Origin: a virus
Taxonomy: Duplodnaviria; Heunggongvirae; Uroviricota; Caudoviricetes
DNA length: 64,000 nt
Virus record (IMG/VR): IMGVR_UViG_2675903313_000009
Reading direction: 5' to 3' (one strand)
The translations under genes were made by a program, and so were the position numbers. The stretch's first letter is position 1; each line of letters begins with the position of its first letter. Below the pieces are notes generated by a model. The model saw only the letters and a program-made list of their open reading frames with translations, was not told the origin of the DNA and made no database searches. Below are positions 13,609-64,000 of the stretch, one piece after another.

Positions 13609-13683
13609 GATGGTGTAGCTCAGCGGTAGAGCAGTTGGCTGTTAACCAACTGGTCGGTGGTTCGAATCCACCCACCATCGCCA
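13609..13683 (+). tRNA. tRNA-Asn (anticodon GUU)
   Basis: cloverleaf read by eye: acceptor GATGGTG/CACCATC, anticodon loop CTGTTAA, T-loop TTCGAAT, encoded CCA. Confidence 0.85.
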
Positions 13684-13688
13684 ATTTA

Positions 13689-13775
13689 GGGGAGTTAGTC
13701 CGTAGAGGTAGCGGTGTAGACTGTAAATCTACTGTCATGGCGACTCGGGTGGTTCGACTCCATCACTCCCCACCA
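13689..13775 (+). tRNA. tRNA-Tyr (anticodon GUA), class II with long variable arm
   Basis: acceptor GGGGAGT/ACTCCCC, anticodon stem GTAGA/TCTAC with loop CTGTAAA, T-loop TTCGACT, encoded CCA; D-arm not fully resolved. Confidence 0.7.
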
Positions 13776-13779
13776 AATT

Positions 13780-13855
13780 GCCGGTTTAGCTCAGTTGGTA
13801 GAGCAGTCGCTTTGTAAGCGAATGGCCAGCGGTTCAAGTCCGTTAACCGGCACCA
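13780..13855 (+). tRNA. tRNA-Thr (anticodon UGU)
   Basis: acceptor GCCGGTT/AACCGGC, D-arm GCTC-AGTTGGTA-GAGC, anticodon loop TTTGTAA, T-loop TTCAAGT, encoded CCA. Confidence 0.8.
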
Positions 13856-13863
13856 ACACAACA

Positions 13864-13939
13864 GGTAAGAGCATTGGGCGAATCGGCGATACTGACCCAC
13901 AAGGCCGTAAATCGATAGAGTCAGACCAGTGCTCTTACC
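13864..13939 (+). other. inverted-repeat hairpin between tRNA-Thr and tRNA-Ser (14-bp stem)
   Basis: ggtaagagcattgg pairs with ccagtgctcttacc (one G-U), loop about 48 nt. Confidence 0.5.
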
Positions 13940-14045
13940 GTTGTGATGAATGCACAGGCTGATGTGCCGCAACTACAGTAGTGCGCGCTTTGCGGGGCTT
14001 GCTACAACCCTGTGTCGGAGTTCAGTACCGACCATCACAATAGCT

Positions 14046-14132
14046 GGAGAGTAGGGAGCATGGTGCTCAAGCGGTCTTGAAAACCGTTCCATTGTGCAAA
14101 CGATGATGGTTCGATTCCATTACTCTCCGCCA
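14046..14132 (+). tRNA. tRNA-Ser (anticodon UGA), class II
   Basis: acceptor GGAGAGT/ACTCTCC, anticodon stem GCGGT/ACCGT with loop CTTGAAA, long variable arm, T-loop TTCGATT, encoded CCA. Confidence 0.7.
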
Positions 14133-16119: not shown

Positions 16120-16217
16120 ACTGAAAATGAGTTACTTTTACTCTTGATCCTATAAGAATCTATGCCTAATATACTGTTTACTTATACAGTGAATCGGCGT
16201 AACTCGGTGATTGTCAT

Positions 16218-17321
16218 ATGAAAAATAGCTTTGACAGAGCACGCGCTGCGGAGAACACCTCAAAAGAGGCGATTGAGTATCTCGAAAGAGCATCTCAAAT
16301 GCAGGCCGTTATGATCTCGCAGGTCAGCAATGACATGAGATTCTCGGACGCATTCATGTTATTCACTCGCTTATCTCTGCTGATAACAAGACGTCGGCCA
16401 GAGATCGCTGTTCATTGTATTTTGATACATGTTTTGCCGCACATTGCCGATGTAAAAGTAAGTGACATTAATAGGTTCATGGTGAACCAACTGGTCAACC
16501 CACTAATACTGGATGGCAAAATTGTTATGGGCCGCCGCGTTTTCTCTCTGATGAAGCAGTTCCTTAGCTGGTGCGCCTTCCAGGGGATGATAGACGTGTC
16601 ACCGTTAAACGATATGTCACTAAACAAAGTTGCCGGTGGCGCAAAGCCCACACCTCGCGAGCGGAAGCTGACCGACGCAGAGGTATGGGTGTTCTGGAAT
16701 ATATGGGACTACTTCAATGTGTGCGCTGGTACAAAATGGGCGGCCAGGCTGTGTCTTGTATCCGCAAGACGACCTGACGAAGTACTGCGGGCTAAAAAAA
16801 GTGAGTTCAATCTTAAGCGTGGGGTTTGGAATCAAGGCAAGAGGAACAAATCTGCCCGTGAGCATTCGCTGCCTTTAAGCACATTAATGCGCACATGTAT
16901 TGAAGAGTTGTTCGAATACGGTAAAGGCAGCCAGTGGCTCGTGCCTTCGAATAAAAAAATCGGGAAAGACCTTCCTATGTCTAAAGTGGCAATAGCCCAG
17001 GCATTACGTCGTATCCTGGAACGACCAGAACTGATGGAGCTTGAGCCATTTACACCCCGAGACTTGCGCCGTACTGCGCGTAGTTACTTCCCAGCATTAG
17101 GCATAAGCCAGGAGGTATCACGCAAAATCATGAACCACAGTCTTGAGGGGATAGATCGAGTCTACGACCGGCACGATTATATGGACGAGATGCGAGACGC
17201 CTTAGAAAGTTTCTCGACGTACATCGCATCAATCGTAGAGCAACCGGATTTAGACGAAATTGACCACAAATTCAAGGGAGATCGTCTATCAACAGAGCTT
17301 ATTCGTGTAAATTTTTCATAG
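16218..17321 (+). CDS. tyrosine recombinase (integrase/resolvase family)
   Basis: catalytic-domain motifs LVSARRPDE, TPRDLRRTARSYF and HSLEGIDRVYDRHDY (R...H-x-x-R...Y). Confidence 0.8.
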   Translation: MKNSFDRARAAENTSKEAIEYLERASQMQAVMISQVSNDMRFSDAFMLFTRLSLLITRRRPEIAVHCILIHVLPHIADVKVSDINRFMVNQLVNPLILDGKIVMGRRVFSLMKQFLSWCAFQGMIDVSPLNDMSLNKVAGGAKPTPRERKLTDAEVWVFWNIWDYFNVCAGTKWAARLCLVSARRPDEVLRAKKSEFNLKRGVWNQGKRNKSAREHSLPLSTLMRTCIEELFEYGKGSQWLVPSNKKIGKDLPMSKVAIAQALRRILERPELMELEPFTPRDLRRTARSYFPALGISQEVSRKIMNHSLEGIDRVYDRHDYMDEMRDALESFSTYIASIVEQPDLDEIDHKFKGDRLSTELIRVNFS

Positions 17322-17702
17322 AGACTTTATGGCCTCAACAACCTTTTGTGATGCGCCTTTCTCTTTACCGAATCGCTCGTTATATGCAGCAAGAACCTGT
17401 TTTTCGTCCTCGTTAAGAGGAGCGGTGCCTTCTTTGTATAAAAATGCTGCGAGTTCAGGTTGGCGTTCTTCCAGCACCATCATCATAAGACGACTTGGCT
17501 CAATACCCAGCGCCAGCGCCAACGGACGAACCTTATCGATAGGCAAAGGAATTTTGCCACTTTTAATTAAAGAAAGGTTGTTGGCATTTTTATAACCAAT
17601 AAGTCTGGCTATTTGGGCCTGACTCATAGGTGAGGATTCAATCAGCCCTGCGATAAAAGCAGCATAGCGACTTTCTATAAATTCAATCTTGTTGTCAGAC
17701 AT
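17316..17702 (-). CDS. XRE-family helix-turn-helix regulator (repressor-like)
   Basis: HTH SQAQIARLIGYKNANNLSLIKSGK; divergent from downstream genes; palindromic operator in its promoter. Confidence 0.6.
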   Translation of the reverse strand: MSDNKIEFIESRYAAFIAGLIESSPMSQAQIARLIGYKNANNLSLIKSGKIPLPIDKVRPLALALGIEPSRLMMMVLEERQPELAAFLYKEGTAPLNEDEKQVLAAYNERFGKEKGASQKVVEAIKSL

Positions 17703-57721: not shown

Positions 57722-58185
57722 GCAAGATTGACTATCAGGCACTGCGTGAAAAGGCAGAGAAAGCAACGTGTGGTGAGTGGTCGCTCGAATATGGAGAGAG
57801 CCGATTAGATGGTGATGATGCGCTAATTCATCGTGAAGTTGCTGGATATATTCCTATTTGCAGAATTGAAGGAGCGCATCCTGAAAGCGGTTTCGATGAA
57901 GATTTCCAGATGGAACAGCAGGCCAATGCTGAATTCATCGCCGCAGCCAGTCCAGCTACCGTGCTGGCACTACTGGATGAGATCAACGCATTAGAGGAAA
58001 CGCGTATCAACGATGTTTGCCGTATTGCGGAACTAACAAAACAACTGGAGTTGGCAAAATCAAAACTCAACGAGCAGCGTGAGTATTACGAGGGCGTTAT
58101 CTCGGATGGAAGTAAGCGCATAGCCGCTCTTCTTCGCAAGGACAATCTTGCCAGCGCCACGAACATTGAAGGTGAAAGAAAATGA
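57718..58185 (+). CDS. hypothetical coiled-coil protein (possibly Ea22-like; unverified)
   Basis: N-terminus [21 protein letters not shown] recalls prophage ead/Ea22-like proteins from memory; needs a search. Confidence 0.4.
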
Positions 58186-58505
58186 CCACATCGCACTCTG
58201 CTATTACCCAAGAAAAAGCCTTCAACATACTCGAACGACTAGAGACGCTCGCTACGGAGGAGGATATATCCCCGGAGAAACTGGTTGAGTTCAGCCGTGT
58301 GATATTGCGTCGCAAGAACGATATGGAGCGGCTGACATCTGGCGCTCCATCCTTATCAGTCAGGCGAACACTTTGTTGCAGCTTCTGCAACAAATCCCAG
58401 TACGCCGTCAAAAAGTTAATTGCTGGGGACGCCGTTTTCATCTGCGACGAGTGTGTGGATGTGTGCAACAGAATTATCCGGGGAGAGAAAGAGGGATCAG
58501 CATGA
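58182..58505 (+). CDS. small protein with ClpX-type C4 zinc-finger domain
   Basis: [34 protein letters not shown] closely parallels the ClpX N-terminal zinc-binding domain ([34 protein letters not shown]). Confidence 0.75.
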
Positions 58506-60870: not shown

Positions 60871-60925
60871 GCAATAGTACGATAAAGAGGCCCCATGCTC
60901 TTGATGGGGCCTGTAGCAACTAGCG

Positions 60926-61009
60926 TTATGGACGCTGGTTTACGTACTCAATGATCGCTTTGATAATCGCGAACATCGGCGGCACGATTTTGAACAGTAA
61001 GTTAACCAT
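60926..61009 (-). CDS. candidate 27-aa hydrophobic peptide (type I toxin-like; speculative)
   Basis: minus-strand ATG with GAGG 6 nt upstream; MVNLLFKIVPPMFAIIKAIIEYVNQRP; a degenerate copy of its 5' segment recurs near 61100. Confidence 0.2.
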   Translation of the reverse strand: MVNLLFKIVPPMFAIIKAIIEYVNQRP

Positions 61010-61314
61010 AACAGGCCTCACTTAGTTTTATCGCGCCTAGCTGCAAATACCTTTGGGCTTGCCTTTGCAGTTGCAATATCTGTAGTCGCCAGATACTTAC
61101 GGCACGATTTCGAGTTAAGGTAAGGTTTTAGAGTCACCAAAAACCTGGACTTAAATCTTCTTTGAGAACAACGATGTTTAGTAAATGGTCATTATTACCT
61201 AGTATGACCACTCAACGTTTCTTGATGAATCCAGTACATTCGGTTAATCTTAATTCAGTCGCCAGATACTTATGGCTCAGGAACAGAGCCGCAAACTCTG
61301 TTTCCTTTTAAAAA

Positions 61315-61340
61315 GCCCAGCCTAGTCAACTGGGCTTTTT
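61315..61340. terminator. bidirectional rho-independent terminator
   Basis: stem gcccag/ctgggc flanked by A5 and T5. Confidence 0.7.
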
Positions 61341-61637
61341 AATGTCTATTTTTAACCCAACATACCCTCAATACTGCAACATCAGTGTCTTGCGAATTAA
61401 GATAGTGTGAATAGATTTTTCATGCAAGTGCATAAGCCTGTGGATAACTCAGGAAGGAAAAAGTGACTTCTGCGCACTTTAGACCGGACAAGGCGTTCGA
61501 AAAAGTCAATGGGAAGAAAAAATTTGTTAAAAATAACGTTTGTTTGAATTGTATATATTTATGCCTTTCAATAGTTAGCATCTTATTAACATCTTTTTTA
61601 AGAGATAGAGTTCAAAAATATATAGCTTCAATATACA

Positions 61638-61653
61638 CTGTATGTGTATACAG
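61638..61653 (+). promoter_or_regulatory. LexA (SOS) box
   Basis: CTGTATGTGTATACAG, matching the CTGT-N8-ACAG consensus, about 20 bp upstream of the umuD'-like start. Confidence 0.8.
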
Positions 61654-61671
61654 TATTAAGAGGCGAGTATT

Positions 61672-62061
61672 ATGGGCTTCCCTTCTCCTGCGGCGGATTA
61701 TGCTGAGAGCCGTATTTCTCTTGATCAGCAGATAATTAGACATCCTTCAGCGACCTACTTCATGAGGGCAGCTGATAGTCATCATCGTGAGGGAATATTA
61801 CAGGGTGCATTGCTGGTGGTCGATTCCTCACTTACCCCGGTTGATGGTTCTCTGCTTGTATGCGCTCTGGATGGGGAATATCGCGTAAAAAGATACCGGA
61901 AGTATCCACGTCAGCATCTGGAGGATTTAAGAACCGGTAAGAAGGAAGCATTGCCAAAGGATGACGATGGATGCACGGGCAGCAATGCCGTGTTTGGTGT
62001 GATCACTCACATTATCAACGACGCAAGAAGTGGCGAGTTTGATGATTGTCCCGTGATGTAG
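61672..62061 (+). CDS. UmuD'-like (pre-truncated UmuD/S24 peptidase family) protein
   Basis: starts GFPSPAADY (the UmuD' N-terminus), then HPSATYF, DS(H), DGEYRVK and VFGVITHI parallel UmuD; no N-terminal cleavage region. Confidence 0.75.
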   Translation: MGFPSPAADYAESRISLDQQIIRHPSATYFMRAADSHHREGILQGALLVVDSSLTPVDGSLLVCALDGEYRVKRYRKYPRQHLEDLRTGKKEALPKDDDGCTGSNAVFGVITHIINDARSGEFDDCPVM

Positions 62062-62073
62062 GAGAACTGATTA

Positions 62074-62097
62074 GGCGGTGCAATGCACCGCCTTTTT
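62074..62097 (+). terminator. rho-independent terminator
   Basis: stem ggcggtgc/gcaccgcc followed by T5; sits between the convergent umuD'-like and apbC genes. Confidence 0.75.
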
Positions 62098-62098
62098 A

Positions 62099-63199
62099 TC
62101 ACACTGCGCGGAATGCGATTTCGCCAGGTATTACTTCACCTTGCCAATACATTTGGGCAGCAACGCGATCTGCGAGGTCACGATAAATAGCCGTAAATTC
62201 GCTATCTGGACGACTAATAACGGTTGGTGTTCCGTTATCCAGATCTTCACGAAGTGAGATATGAAGTGGCATTTGGCCTAACAACTGCGTGTTGTATTTC
62301 TCGGCCAGTTTCTCTGCGCCACCGGTGCCGAAAATTGGCTCGTGATGACCGCAGTTACTGCAAATATGCACACTCATGTTTTCGACGATACCCAGTACCG
62401 GCACTTCGACTTTTTCGAACATCACAATGCCTTTCTTCGCATCGATCAGCGCGATGTCTTGCGGCGTAGTTACCACAACAGCACCAGTTACAGGAATGTT
62501 CTGCGCCAGCGTCAACTGAATATCACCAGTGCCCGGCGGCATATCGAGAACAAGATAGTCCAGATCAGGCCATAGAGTTTCCTGCAACATCTGCATCAGC
62601 GCCTTGCTGGCCATCGGTCCACGCCACACCATTGCATTGTCGTCGGTGACCAGATAACCAATAGAGTTGGTTGCCAGGCCATGAGACATGATAGGTGCCA
62701 TGTGAGTACCGTCAGGTGAGGTTGGACGTTGGTTTTCCGCGCCCAGCATGGTTGGAATTGATGGACCATAGATATCGGCATCCAAAATACCAACTTTCGC
62801 ACCTTCAGCAGCCAACGCCAGTGCCAGGTTTACCGCCGTGGAGGATTTACCCACGCCGCCCTTGCCTGAGCTGACGGCGATAATGTTCTTAACGCCATTA
62901 ATGCCTGGTTGGTTTTTGACACGCTTAAGCGTGGCAATGTTGTACGACAGCTTCCAGTCAATAGCCTTTGCGCCAGTGATACGGAGCAGATCACCACTAC
63001 ATTGCTCTTTCAGGTCTTCAAAAGGCTTATTCCACACGAAAGGCATGATTAGTTCGACATGCAGTGTGTCATCCATCAACGCAACATGGTGTAACGCTTT
63101 AAGCGTAGTCAGGTTGTGTTTCAGGGTTGGGTGCTGAAAATTAGCCAGCGTACCGGCTACCATTGCTCTCAGGGCATCCGGCGATTTGGACTCGCTCAT
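62099..63199 (-). CDS. apbC: Fe-S cluster carrier ATPase ApbC/Mrp
   Basis: 366 aa; deviant Walker A SSGKGGVGKSS and CSNCGHHEP motif; near-identical to enterobacterial Mrp as recalled. Confidence 0.95.
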   Translation of the reverse strand: MSESKSPDALRAMVAGTLANFQHPTLKHNLTTLKALHHVALMDDTLHVELIMPFVWNKPFEDLKEQCSGDLLRITGAKAIDWKLSYNIATLKRVKNQPGINGVKNIIAVSSGKGGVGKSSTAVNLALALAAEGAKVGILDADIYGPSIPTMLGAENQRPTSPDGTHMAPIMSHGLATNSIGYLVTDDNAMVWRGPMASKALMQMLQETLWPDLDYLVLDMPPGTGDIQLTLAQNIPVTGAVVVTTPQDIALIDAKKGIVMFEKVEVPVLGIVENMSVHICSNCGHHEPIFGTGGAEKLAEKYNTQLLGQMPLHISLREDLDNGTPTVISRPDSEFTAIYRDLADRVAAQMYWQGEVIPGEIAFRAV

Positions 63200-63356: not shown

Positions 63357-64000
63357 ATGACCCAAGTCGCGAAGAAAATTCTGGTGACGTGCGCGCTGCC
63401 GTACGCTAACGGCTCAATCCACCTCGGCCATATGCTGGAGCACATCCAGGCTGATGTCTGGGTTCGTTACCAGCGAATGCGCGGCCACGAGGTTAATTTC
63501 ATCTGTGCCGACGATGCCCACGGTACGCCGATCATGCTGAAAGCACAGCAGCTTGGTATCACACCGGAGCAGATGATTGGCGAAATGAGTCAGGAACACC
63601 AGACTGATTTCGCAGGCTTTAACATCAGCTATGACAACTATCACTCGACGCACAGCGAAGAGAACCGCCAGCTGTCTGAGCTTATCTATACTCGCCTGAA
63701 AGAGAACGGTTTTATTAAAAACCGCACTATCTCTCAGTTGTACGACCCGGAAAAAGGCATGTTCCTGCCGGATCGTTTTGTGAAAGGCACCTGCCCGAAA
63801 TGTAAAGCGCCAGATCAATACGGCGATAACTGTGAAGTTTGCGGCGCGACCTACAGCCCGACTGAACTGATTGAGCCGAAATCGGTAGTTTCTGGCGCTA
63901 CGCCGGTAATGCGTGATTCTGAACACTTCTTCTTTGATCTGCCCTCTTTCAGCGAAATGTTGCAGGCATGGACCCGCAGCGGTGCGTTGCAGGAGCAGGT
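63357..64000 (+). CDS. metG: methionyl-tRNA synthetase, 5' portion (continues beyond window end)
   Basis: [35 protein letters not shown] (HIGH motif) and zinc knuckle CPKC...CEVCG; no stop within the window. Confidence 0.95.

Follow-up and report, generated by a model that had tools for sequence, protein, structure and literature searches.

A humD gene with a predicted LexA operator on an SSU5/pECOH89-type phage-plasmid

The humD gene and its product

The window, i.e. the whole 64,000-nucleotide stretch of viral DNA analysed here, carries close to its right end the gene humD (61672..62061, plus strand), which starts with ATG and codes for a 129-aa HumD-family protein, a pre-truncated UmuD' analogue with an S24 peptidase fold. 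The Shine-Dalgarno sequence AAGAGG (61658..61663, plus strand) is located 8 nt 5' of the start codon and overlaps the in-frame stop codon TAA (61657-61659). This stop codon closes the reading frame five codons upstream of the ATG, leaving four sense codons in between, and therefore renders an N-terminal extension impossible. The N-terminus of the product, M-GFPSPAADY, aligns with residues 25-33 of UmuD, and its second residue pairs with residue 1 of crystallised UmuD', which corresponds to Gly25 of UmuD. The sequence-only reading had proposed that the product starts at the position of RecA-mediated cleavage in UmuD; the alignment at Gly25 and the upstream TAA bear this out.

Searches of protein families and solved structures placed the product with UmuD'. 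At the sequence level, the top matches among solved structures were UmuD' (1UMU, 1I4V) and the UmuD subunit of Pol V (8GMT), and residues 2-118 of the query matched residues 1-114 of the 1UMU chain with an E value of 6.7e-23. The NCBIfam equivalog NF051876 ('HumD family translesion DNA polymerase') reached 219.8 bits (cutoff 120; E 8e-66) and was covered from end to end, residues 1-129 of the protein lying on positions 1-129 of the 129-position profile. The NCBIfam model that describes UmuD proper, the Pol V subunit with autoproteolytic activity, scored 87 bits and stayed below its cutoff of 110. Furthermore, Pfam Peptidase_S24 (PF00717) was detected with 37.9 bits (cutoff 23.3; 1.6e-9), and PHROG 811 'UmuD-like' matched at 2.7e-54. 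The protein is identical residue for residue to RefSeq WP_000506720.1, which carries the PGAP name 'HumD family translesion DNA polymerase'. The sequence matches to the UmuD' structures and to the curated equivalog suffice to establish what the protein is.

A multiple alignment revealed 100% identity of the product to CYRAN_98 of phage Cyrano, 98% to PhiR41_1, 93% to vB_EcoM-813R1 and 44% to E. coli UmuD. P1 HumD aligned over the full length without gaps at 91% amino acid identity, with differences at 12 of 129 positions. The comparison with UmuD and HumD, which had been suggested as a check, runs residue for residue from Gly25 onwards after Met1. The proposal of a pre-truncated UmuD' analogue like that of P1 is substantiated by the identity to P1 HumD and by the equivalog match. 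Most positions of the UmuD' core are invariant in the alignment. Ser36 and Lys73, the counterparts of the UmuD Ser60/Lys97 dyad, are invariant in the six aligned sequences. At the nucleotide level, humD and P1 humD are 86% identical with a dS of 0.77, a dN of 0.042 and a dN/dS of 0.055, values that reveal strong purifying selection; the gene is no decaying fragment. Both the cleavage site (Ala/Cys-Gly) and the N-terminal domain are absent from the product, and the self-cleavage feature of UmuD proper is thus missing, which sets HumD apart from UmuD proper. As far as a sequence can reveal them, all defining features of the HumD family were found. The gene is an ordinary, already catalogued humD: RefSeq already lists the exact protein as a HumD family member and the function of the type member, characterised in 1999, is on record, so that its discovery value is small.

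LexA operator, promoter and terminator of humD

A predicted LexA operator (SOS box) with the sequence CACTGTATGTGTATACAGTA is located at 61636..61655 and matches the E. coli consensus TACTGTATATATATACAGTA at 17 of 20 positions. Its palindromic core CTGT-N8-ACAG was detected by pattern match as the 16-mer CTGTATGTGTATACAG at 61638..61653. The bare core occurs twice in the 64-kb window where 0.91 occurrences are expected, and 22 of 100 shuffled windows contained at least two. In contrast, not one of 100 shuffles of the window contained a match to the 20-bp consensus with three or fewer mismatches. The four-plus-four core alone is not significant, whereas the full 20-bp site is; CTGTAT-N4-ATACAG with at most one mismatch is expected 0.11 times in the window. 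The near-consensus LexA box announced in front of the gene was thus confirmed. It had been placed about 20 bp upstream; the upstream position holds, and the distance to the ATG amounts to 18 nt from the 16-mer or 16 nt from the 20-mer.

The box overlaps the only plausible -10 region of humD. The candidate σ70 promoter (61611..61639, plus strand) consists of a -35 region TTCAAA (61611-61616), a 17-nt spacer and a -10 region TACACT (61634-61639). It was read by eye and matches the consensus at 8 of 12 positions; the promoter scan of the plus strand upstream of humD, with a threshold of 9/12, returned no site. By consensus the humD promoter therefore appears weak, its -10 region TACACT differing from the TATACT (5/6) found at the homologous position in Cyrano, 813R1, D6 and PhiR41_1. 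The -10 region overlaps the left arm of the box, a geometry that is usual for LexA repression and would fit it here. A promoter site on the minus strand (61659-61630) also overlaps the box, and no credible divergent gene was found downstream of it. On the 3' side, an intrinsic terminator (62073..62100, plus strand) with a 9-bp stem of seven GC pairs followed by a T run lies between the humD stop codon and the stop codon of the convergent gene apbC (62099). These elements are best explained as a single-gene SOS unit predicted to comprise promoter, LexA operator, ribosome binding site, humD and terminator.

This arrangement was compared in eight homologues, namely those of the window, Cyrano, P1, PhiR41_1, 813R1 and D6 together with N15 gp26 and phiKO2 gp23. 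All eight exhibit a box with an intact CTGT-N8-ACAG core and a 16-18/20 match to the consensus, located 14-44 nt 5' of the start codon, and in all eight the start codon is followed directly by GFPSPA or GYPSPA and preceded by an in-frame stop codon. Further 5', beyond the box and a short block immediately before it, the DNA is unrelated between the homologues. The box of the window aligns with the LexA site annotated in the P1 record AF234172 (87545-87564, 'in the regulatory region of lxr and humD'), which ends 19 nt before humD. The phiKO2 record likewise annotates a LexA site at its own box.

A second LexA-like box, TACTGTTTACTTATACAGTG, was observed at 16172-16191 (core 16174-16189) and is conserved in plasmid pR9-658-1. 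It lies 28 nt 5' of an ORF on the plus strand (16218-17321) coding for a 367-aa tyrosine recombinase (Pfam Phage_integrase, 6.8e-10), whose gene is convergent with that of a 128-aa HTH regulator (17316-17702, minus strand). This location suggests SOS control of the recombinase or of the lysis-lysogeny region of the phage-plasmid.

Genomic location and surroundings

The window aligns over 56.8 of its 64 kb at 95-99.7% identity with the complete 110,949-bp plasmid pR9-658-1. The matches form one collinear series that crosses the coordinate origin of the plasmid record (window 33864/33865 = record 1/110949), and both ends of the window fall into plasmid-homologous sequence. An 801-bp segment around humD is 99.6-99.9% identical to plasmids of about 107-120 kb from E. 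coli, Shigella and E. albertii and, at the same level, to phages CMS-2020a and Cyrano. For the 25 kb at the right end of the window, 121 plasmids match over at least 80% of the length, nearly all of them non-mobilizable; among them is pECOH89 (NC_023916), reported to be phage-like and a relative of Salmonella phage SSU5 (PMC3999498). The gene content of pR9-658-1 includes RepB, ParB and a full siphovirus structural module. The comparison indicates that the window is part of a circular SSU5/pECOH89-type phage-plasmid of about 107-111 kb.

Collinearity with pR9-658-1 also assigns to the element a set of genes of its own (window ~1-57000), which comprises RecA, DnaE (Pol III alpha), a DnaB-like helicase and an ATP-dependent ligase. 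NrdAB, ThyA, a DfrA51-type DHFR, RNase HI and a tRNA cluster (Asn, Tyr, Thr and Ser; window 13609-14132) are further element genes. Such a replication and nucleotide-metabolism set beside a Pol V cofactor is unusually complete. At gathering thresholds, Rfam returned four tRNA-type matches in the window at 13.6-14.1 kb and none near humD. A 107-aa stand-alone ClpX C4-type zinc-finger protein (Pfam, 1.2e-15) is encoded at 58182-58505 on the plus strand among Ea22/DUF551-type accessory genes.

Downstream of humD, apbC (62099..63199, minus strand) is followed by the 5' part of metG, which extends to the window end at 64000; the two genes keep their chromosomal divergent arrangement on the phage-plasmid. 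Their window copy shares 95-99.5% identity with plasmid copies but only about 85% with the chromosomal copy of E. coli, 5423 of 5639 matching records falling within the 80-90% identity band. All 5,426 complete E. coli genomes carry apbC-metG on the chromosome. Moreover, pTW10722_119, Cyrano, PhiR41_1 and pR9-658-1 each have more phage-plasmid genes beyond metG. The apbC-metG pair is thus a captured housekeeping segment on a phage-plasmid and not chromosome. The collinearity with a circular plasmid, together with the ~85% chromosomal identity, therefore leaves no element-chromosome boundary at this site, and the placement of humD at such a boundary in the sequence-only reading has to be abandoned. 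Its other statements on the neighbourhood fared better. The gene map agrees with a position between phage-type accessory genes and apbC, and the segment is indeed AT-rich, if modestly so, with a GC content of 0.35-0.41 across 60950-61850 compared to 0.44-0.54 on either flank. As to whether the gene is cargo of the element or an independent islet, the first option stands and the second falls: humD-apbC-metG is a conserved block of the phage-plasmid lineage, in which humD is evidently conserved cargo rather than a chromosomal islet. The DNA directly 5' of humD varies; in PhiR41_1, for example, a P1-type promoter and a spacer of only 157 nt lie upstream of the gene. ApbC is mislabelled as ParA/MinD-like by PHROGs and in the Cyrano annotation.

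The AT-rich 'intergenic' stretch of about 800 nt 5' of humD harbors an unannotated type I toxin-antitoxin-like module with elements on both strands (60888-61343). A candidate antisense sRNA on the plus strand (~61257-61343) gave a sub-threshold match to Rfam AgrB (27.6 bits at a gathering score of 40, E 0.016); it folds at -34 kcal/mol (z = -5) and has a perfect terminator at its end. Since its first 20 nt repeat positions 61084-61103 at 19 of 20 positions, it would be antisense to a minus-strand transcript. The candidate toxin ORF on that strand (60926-61009) codes for the hydrophobic 27-aa peptide MVNLLFKIVPPMFAIIKAIIEYVNQRP, with its ATG at 61009 preceded by the SD sequence GTGAGG, and the terminator scan placed the end of the candidate transcript at 60912-60888 (minus strand). 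In a 77%-identical relative (L014), both copies of the repeat change together, five base pairs of the sRNA are compensatory, and a homologous peptide, MVSLLLKILPPLVAIITTIIDYINKR, is retained. This covariation supports the predicted antisense sRNA. The peptide found no match in Pfam, NCBIfam or PHROGs, and the module lacks annotation in about 98 plasmids. Its layout is that of E. coli dinQ/agrB, and on plasmids such dqlB/agrB systems have been described as addiction modules (PMC12365149, PMC12317039, PMC5066626). The toxin was nevertheless rejected as a dinQ homologue, as the minus-strand RNA is devoid of similarity to dinQ mRNA, the peptide likewise shows none to dinQ, and the likeness consists only in the layout and the sub-threshold AgrB match.

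Several further observations concern the DNA on this side of humD. Between the sRNA terminator and the humD promoter lies a hypervariable non-coding patch (61340-61545) with 26 differences from Cyrano and 42 from plasmid 2013C-4991; no ORF is kept across it, and the flank at 61546-61631 is identical in the same comparison. Two ORFs were rejected as coding. Changes relative to Cyrano are mostly non-synonymous in both the 53-aa ORF at 61420-61581 (minus strand), whose stop codon is lost in Cyrano, and the 90-aa ORF at 61463-61735 (plus strand). About 2 kb 5' of humD, in the DUF551 gene region, pR9-658-1 carries an ISEcp1-blaCTX-M-15 insertion (window junction 59748/59753; L007 31455-34239) and pTW10722_119 an IS66 insertion (ISEc47). 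The window contains neither, and the DUF551 accessory stretch looks like an insertion hot spot. In the chromosome NZ_CP019259.1 (1826-1829 kb), a gene for a 208-aa hypothetical protein, the toxin-antitoxin-like spacer and the 5' part of a truncated humD are found in a KplE1/CPS-53-like prophage. The fragment sits at tRNA-Arg (argW) adjoining an IS3, from which it follows that the humD-region segment moves between phage backgrounds.

Relation to known systems and proposed role of HumD

The closest characterised relative is P1 HumD (AAQ14073), for which the literature to be named is McLenigan et al. 1999 (J Bacteriol 181:7005) and Lobocka et al. 2004. P1 HumD has the same length of 129 aa, the same MGFPSPAADY start at the UmuD' N-terminus and the same NF051876 match, and its gene resembles that of the window in the corresponding position of the LexA operator, in being an orphan without umuC in cis and in being carried by a plasmid prophage. 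The carriers differ, P1 being a myovirus and the window element a siphovirus-type SSU5/pECOH89 phage-plasmid. Likewise, the gene order in P1 is lxr-humD-phd-doc, whereas in the window the toxin-antitoxin-like spacer precedes humD and apbC-metG follows it. The promoter DNA 5' of the -10 region and box is unrelated, and the distance from box to ATG is 16 nt in the window and 19 nt in P1.

With E. coli UmuD' (1UMU, 1I4V; Pol V 8GMT) the product shares the S24 C-terminal domain, the Ser/Lys dyad and 44% identity over the UmuD' part. Its N-terminus equals that of the Cys24-Gly25 cleavage product, and a LexA box precedes both genes. UmuD', however, arises from a 139-aa precursor by RecA-facilitated self-cleavage, while HumD is translated short, with a 4-residue insertion before the last strand and an acidic C-terminal extension of 10 residues. 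Furthermore, umuD is co-transcribed with umuC, whereas humD stands alone. N15 gp26 and phiKO2 gp23 (128 and 127 aa) are likewise pre-truncated UmuD-like proteins with a (M/V)GFPSPA start, encoded downstream of a LexA box on (linear) plasmid prophages. Their nucleotide identity to humD is only about 68% and restricted to part of the gene; both adjoin sopB/parB, and in phiKO2 the LexA box is paired with a divergent dinI-like gene. MucA, ImpA, SamA and RumA are full-length UmuD homologues that require RecA-mediated cleavage and are encoded in operons with mucB, impB, samB and rumB, respectively. Like HumD, they are mobile-element-borne, SOS-regulated S24 proteins, acting as accessory subunits of Pol V-type polymerases (PMC7092418); in contrast to them, HumD does not depend on cleavage, and its gene stands without a partner. 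The pre-truncated homologues that we looked at, those of P1, P7, D6, RCS47, SJ46, SSU5-like elements, N15 and phiKO2, are all located on plasmid prophages.

A tblastn search of the window and of complete pR9-658-1 with UmuC and DinB as queries yielded only noise (E values of at least 0.45), and the 111-kb pR9-658-1 record contains no annotated Y-family polymerase. As in P1, humD is thus an orphan without umuC in cis. Since the element itself does not supply a Y-family polymerase, we propose the host-encoded UmuC as the partner of HumD, which presumably works with it as reported for P1.

Taken together, the data make it highly probable that humD provides a LexA-controlled, ready-made UmuD'-type subunit for a Pol V-like translesion polymerase built on host UmuC. 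In the unstressed lysogen, host LexA would occupy the operator, which overlaps the -10 region and probably the start of transcription, and would keep humD off. Upon DNA damage, activated RecA would trigger self-cleavage of LexA, and humD would be transcribed. HumD would be translated directly in the UmuD' form, skipping the slow RecA-dependent cleavage that gates polymerase V; removal of Met1 is likely, being favoured by the following Gly, and the product would then start at the equivalent of Gly25. A HumD dimer would bind UmuC of the host, and the two together with RecA-ATP would make up a Pol V-like translesion polymerase, which would allow damaged DNA, the plasmid prophage included, to be replicated at the cost of mutations. 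None of the observations contradicts this reading.

The starting points of this proposal, all observed here, are the anatomy of the locus, the assignment of the product to the HumD family, the conserved operator, the signature of purifying selection, the lack of a umuC gene and the phage-plasmid context. LexA repression, dimerisation, binding of UmuC and RecA and a role in mutagenesis are carried over from the 91%-identical P1 HumD and from UmuD' biochemistry. By the same homology, the product would be expressed only during SOS and in a constitutively active form, as the sequence-only reading had worded it. P1 HumD is said, in the work of McLenigan et al., to complement UmuD' function, to form dimers and to bind UmuC and the RecA filament. 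It was reportedly also poorly expressed, with good complementation only from a high-copy plasmid, and the physiological contribution may therefore be small. The P1 GenBank record notes that HumD 'functionally complements E. coli UmuD''. P1 has been described to encode a shorter, already activated UmuD named HumD (PMC7092418), and humD is listed as a LexA-regulated SOS gene (PMC9603915). Since the element brings its own RecA and DnaE, HumD could have other partners in the cell than those supplied by the host.

Although HumD lacks a tail that it could cleave off itself, its Ser36/Lys73 dyad is invariant, which could point to a product that mainly modulates the SOS and mutagenesis machinery of the host instead of serving as a polymerase subunit. 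It might titrate the RecA filament or, through heterodimers, UmuD; it might also interact with the beta clamp or with Pol III, or use the dyad for trans cleavage of an S24 protein such as the UmuD of the host, perhaps together with the RecA of the element and the protein consisting of the ClpX zinc finger only. The element does encode a RecA homologue and DnaE, and the gene for the ClpX-type zinc finger lies 3 kb upstream of humD. UmuD/UmuD' heterodimers are substrates of ClpXP, to which they are tethered via the ClpX N-domain, and cleavage of UmuD can be intermolecular; both properties would suit a modulator. However, UmuD' retains the dyad without needing it, so that its retention may be structural, the closely related P1 HumD complements UmuD' in mutagenesis according to the P1 record and, reportedly, to McLenigan et al., and nothing beyond the common replicon ties humD to the ClpX-finger or recA genes. 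We consider a mainly modulatory function unlikely.

The short length and the missing umuC partner might also be taken as signs of a decaying, 5'-truncated umuDC remnant, a pseudogene that begins at the cleavage site by coincidence. Such a remnant would hardly possess its own ribosome binding site and start codon, a LexA operator directly 5' and a terminator 3'. Moreover, the 127-129-aa form with an identical start is kept in eight phage-plasmids of four types, a curated equivalog model covers exactly this short form, and the low dN/dS argues in the same direction; conservation and selection effectively refute decay, which we regard as extremely improbable. Next to no chance is left to humD as an independent islet at the junction of an integrated element and the chromosome by apbC. 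This idea draws on apbC and metG being normally chromosomal housekeeping genes in their chromosomal divergent arrangement, and on the mobility of the segment, a fragment of which was found in the KplE1-like prophage at argW of one chromosome. For the window it is refuted by the collinearity with a circular plasmid across its origin, with plasmid-homologous sequence at both ends, and by the phage-plasmid genes that continue beyond humD-apbC-metG in four relatives (named above); apbC-metG, moreover, is only about 85% identical to the chromosomal copy, and E. coli genomes all carry their own.

A bolder, joint reading would make HumD part of a damage-tolerance set of the element, which includes its own RecA and DnaE and in which the ClpX finger acts as a decoy shielding UmuD'-type proteins from ClpXP; a decoy for UmuD/UmuD' is conceivable. 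The prophage would then assemble or stabilise its own mutasome, or the Ser-Lys dyad would process host UmuD in trans. Separately, the 27-aa peptide and its antisense sRNA would constitute a new type I toxin-antitoxin family serving as addiction system of CTX-M-15-carrying phage-plasmids. We hold this combination to be very unlikely.

The preferred reading, a LexA-controlled UmuD'-type subunit working with host UmuC, comes with a correction of the map: the 64 kb represent a phage-plasmid, and apbC-metG is captured cargo and not chromosome. Among the homologues examined, the pre-truncated UmuD' is always found on plasmid prophages, which fits the idea that extrachromosomal prophages bring along an instantly active Pol V cofactor. 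Autonomously replicating prophages must copy their own damaged DNA, and HumD would fit a role in staying replicable after damage. As relatives of the element carry CTX-M-15, an SOS-inducible mutagenesis factor on such phage-plasmids may be relevant to evolution under antibiotic stress.
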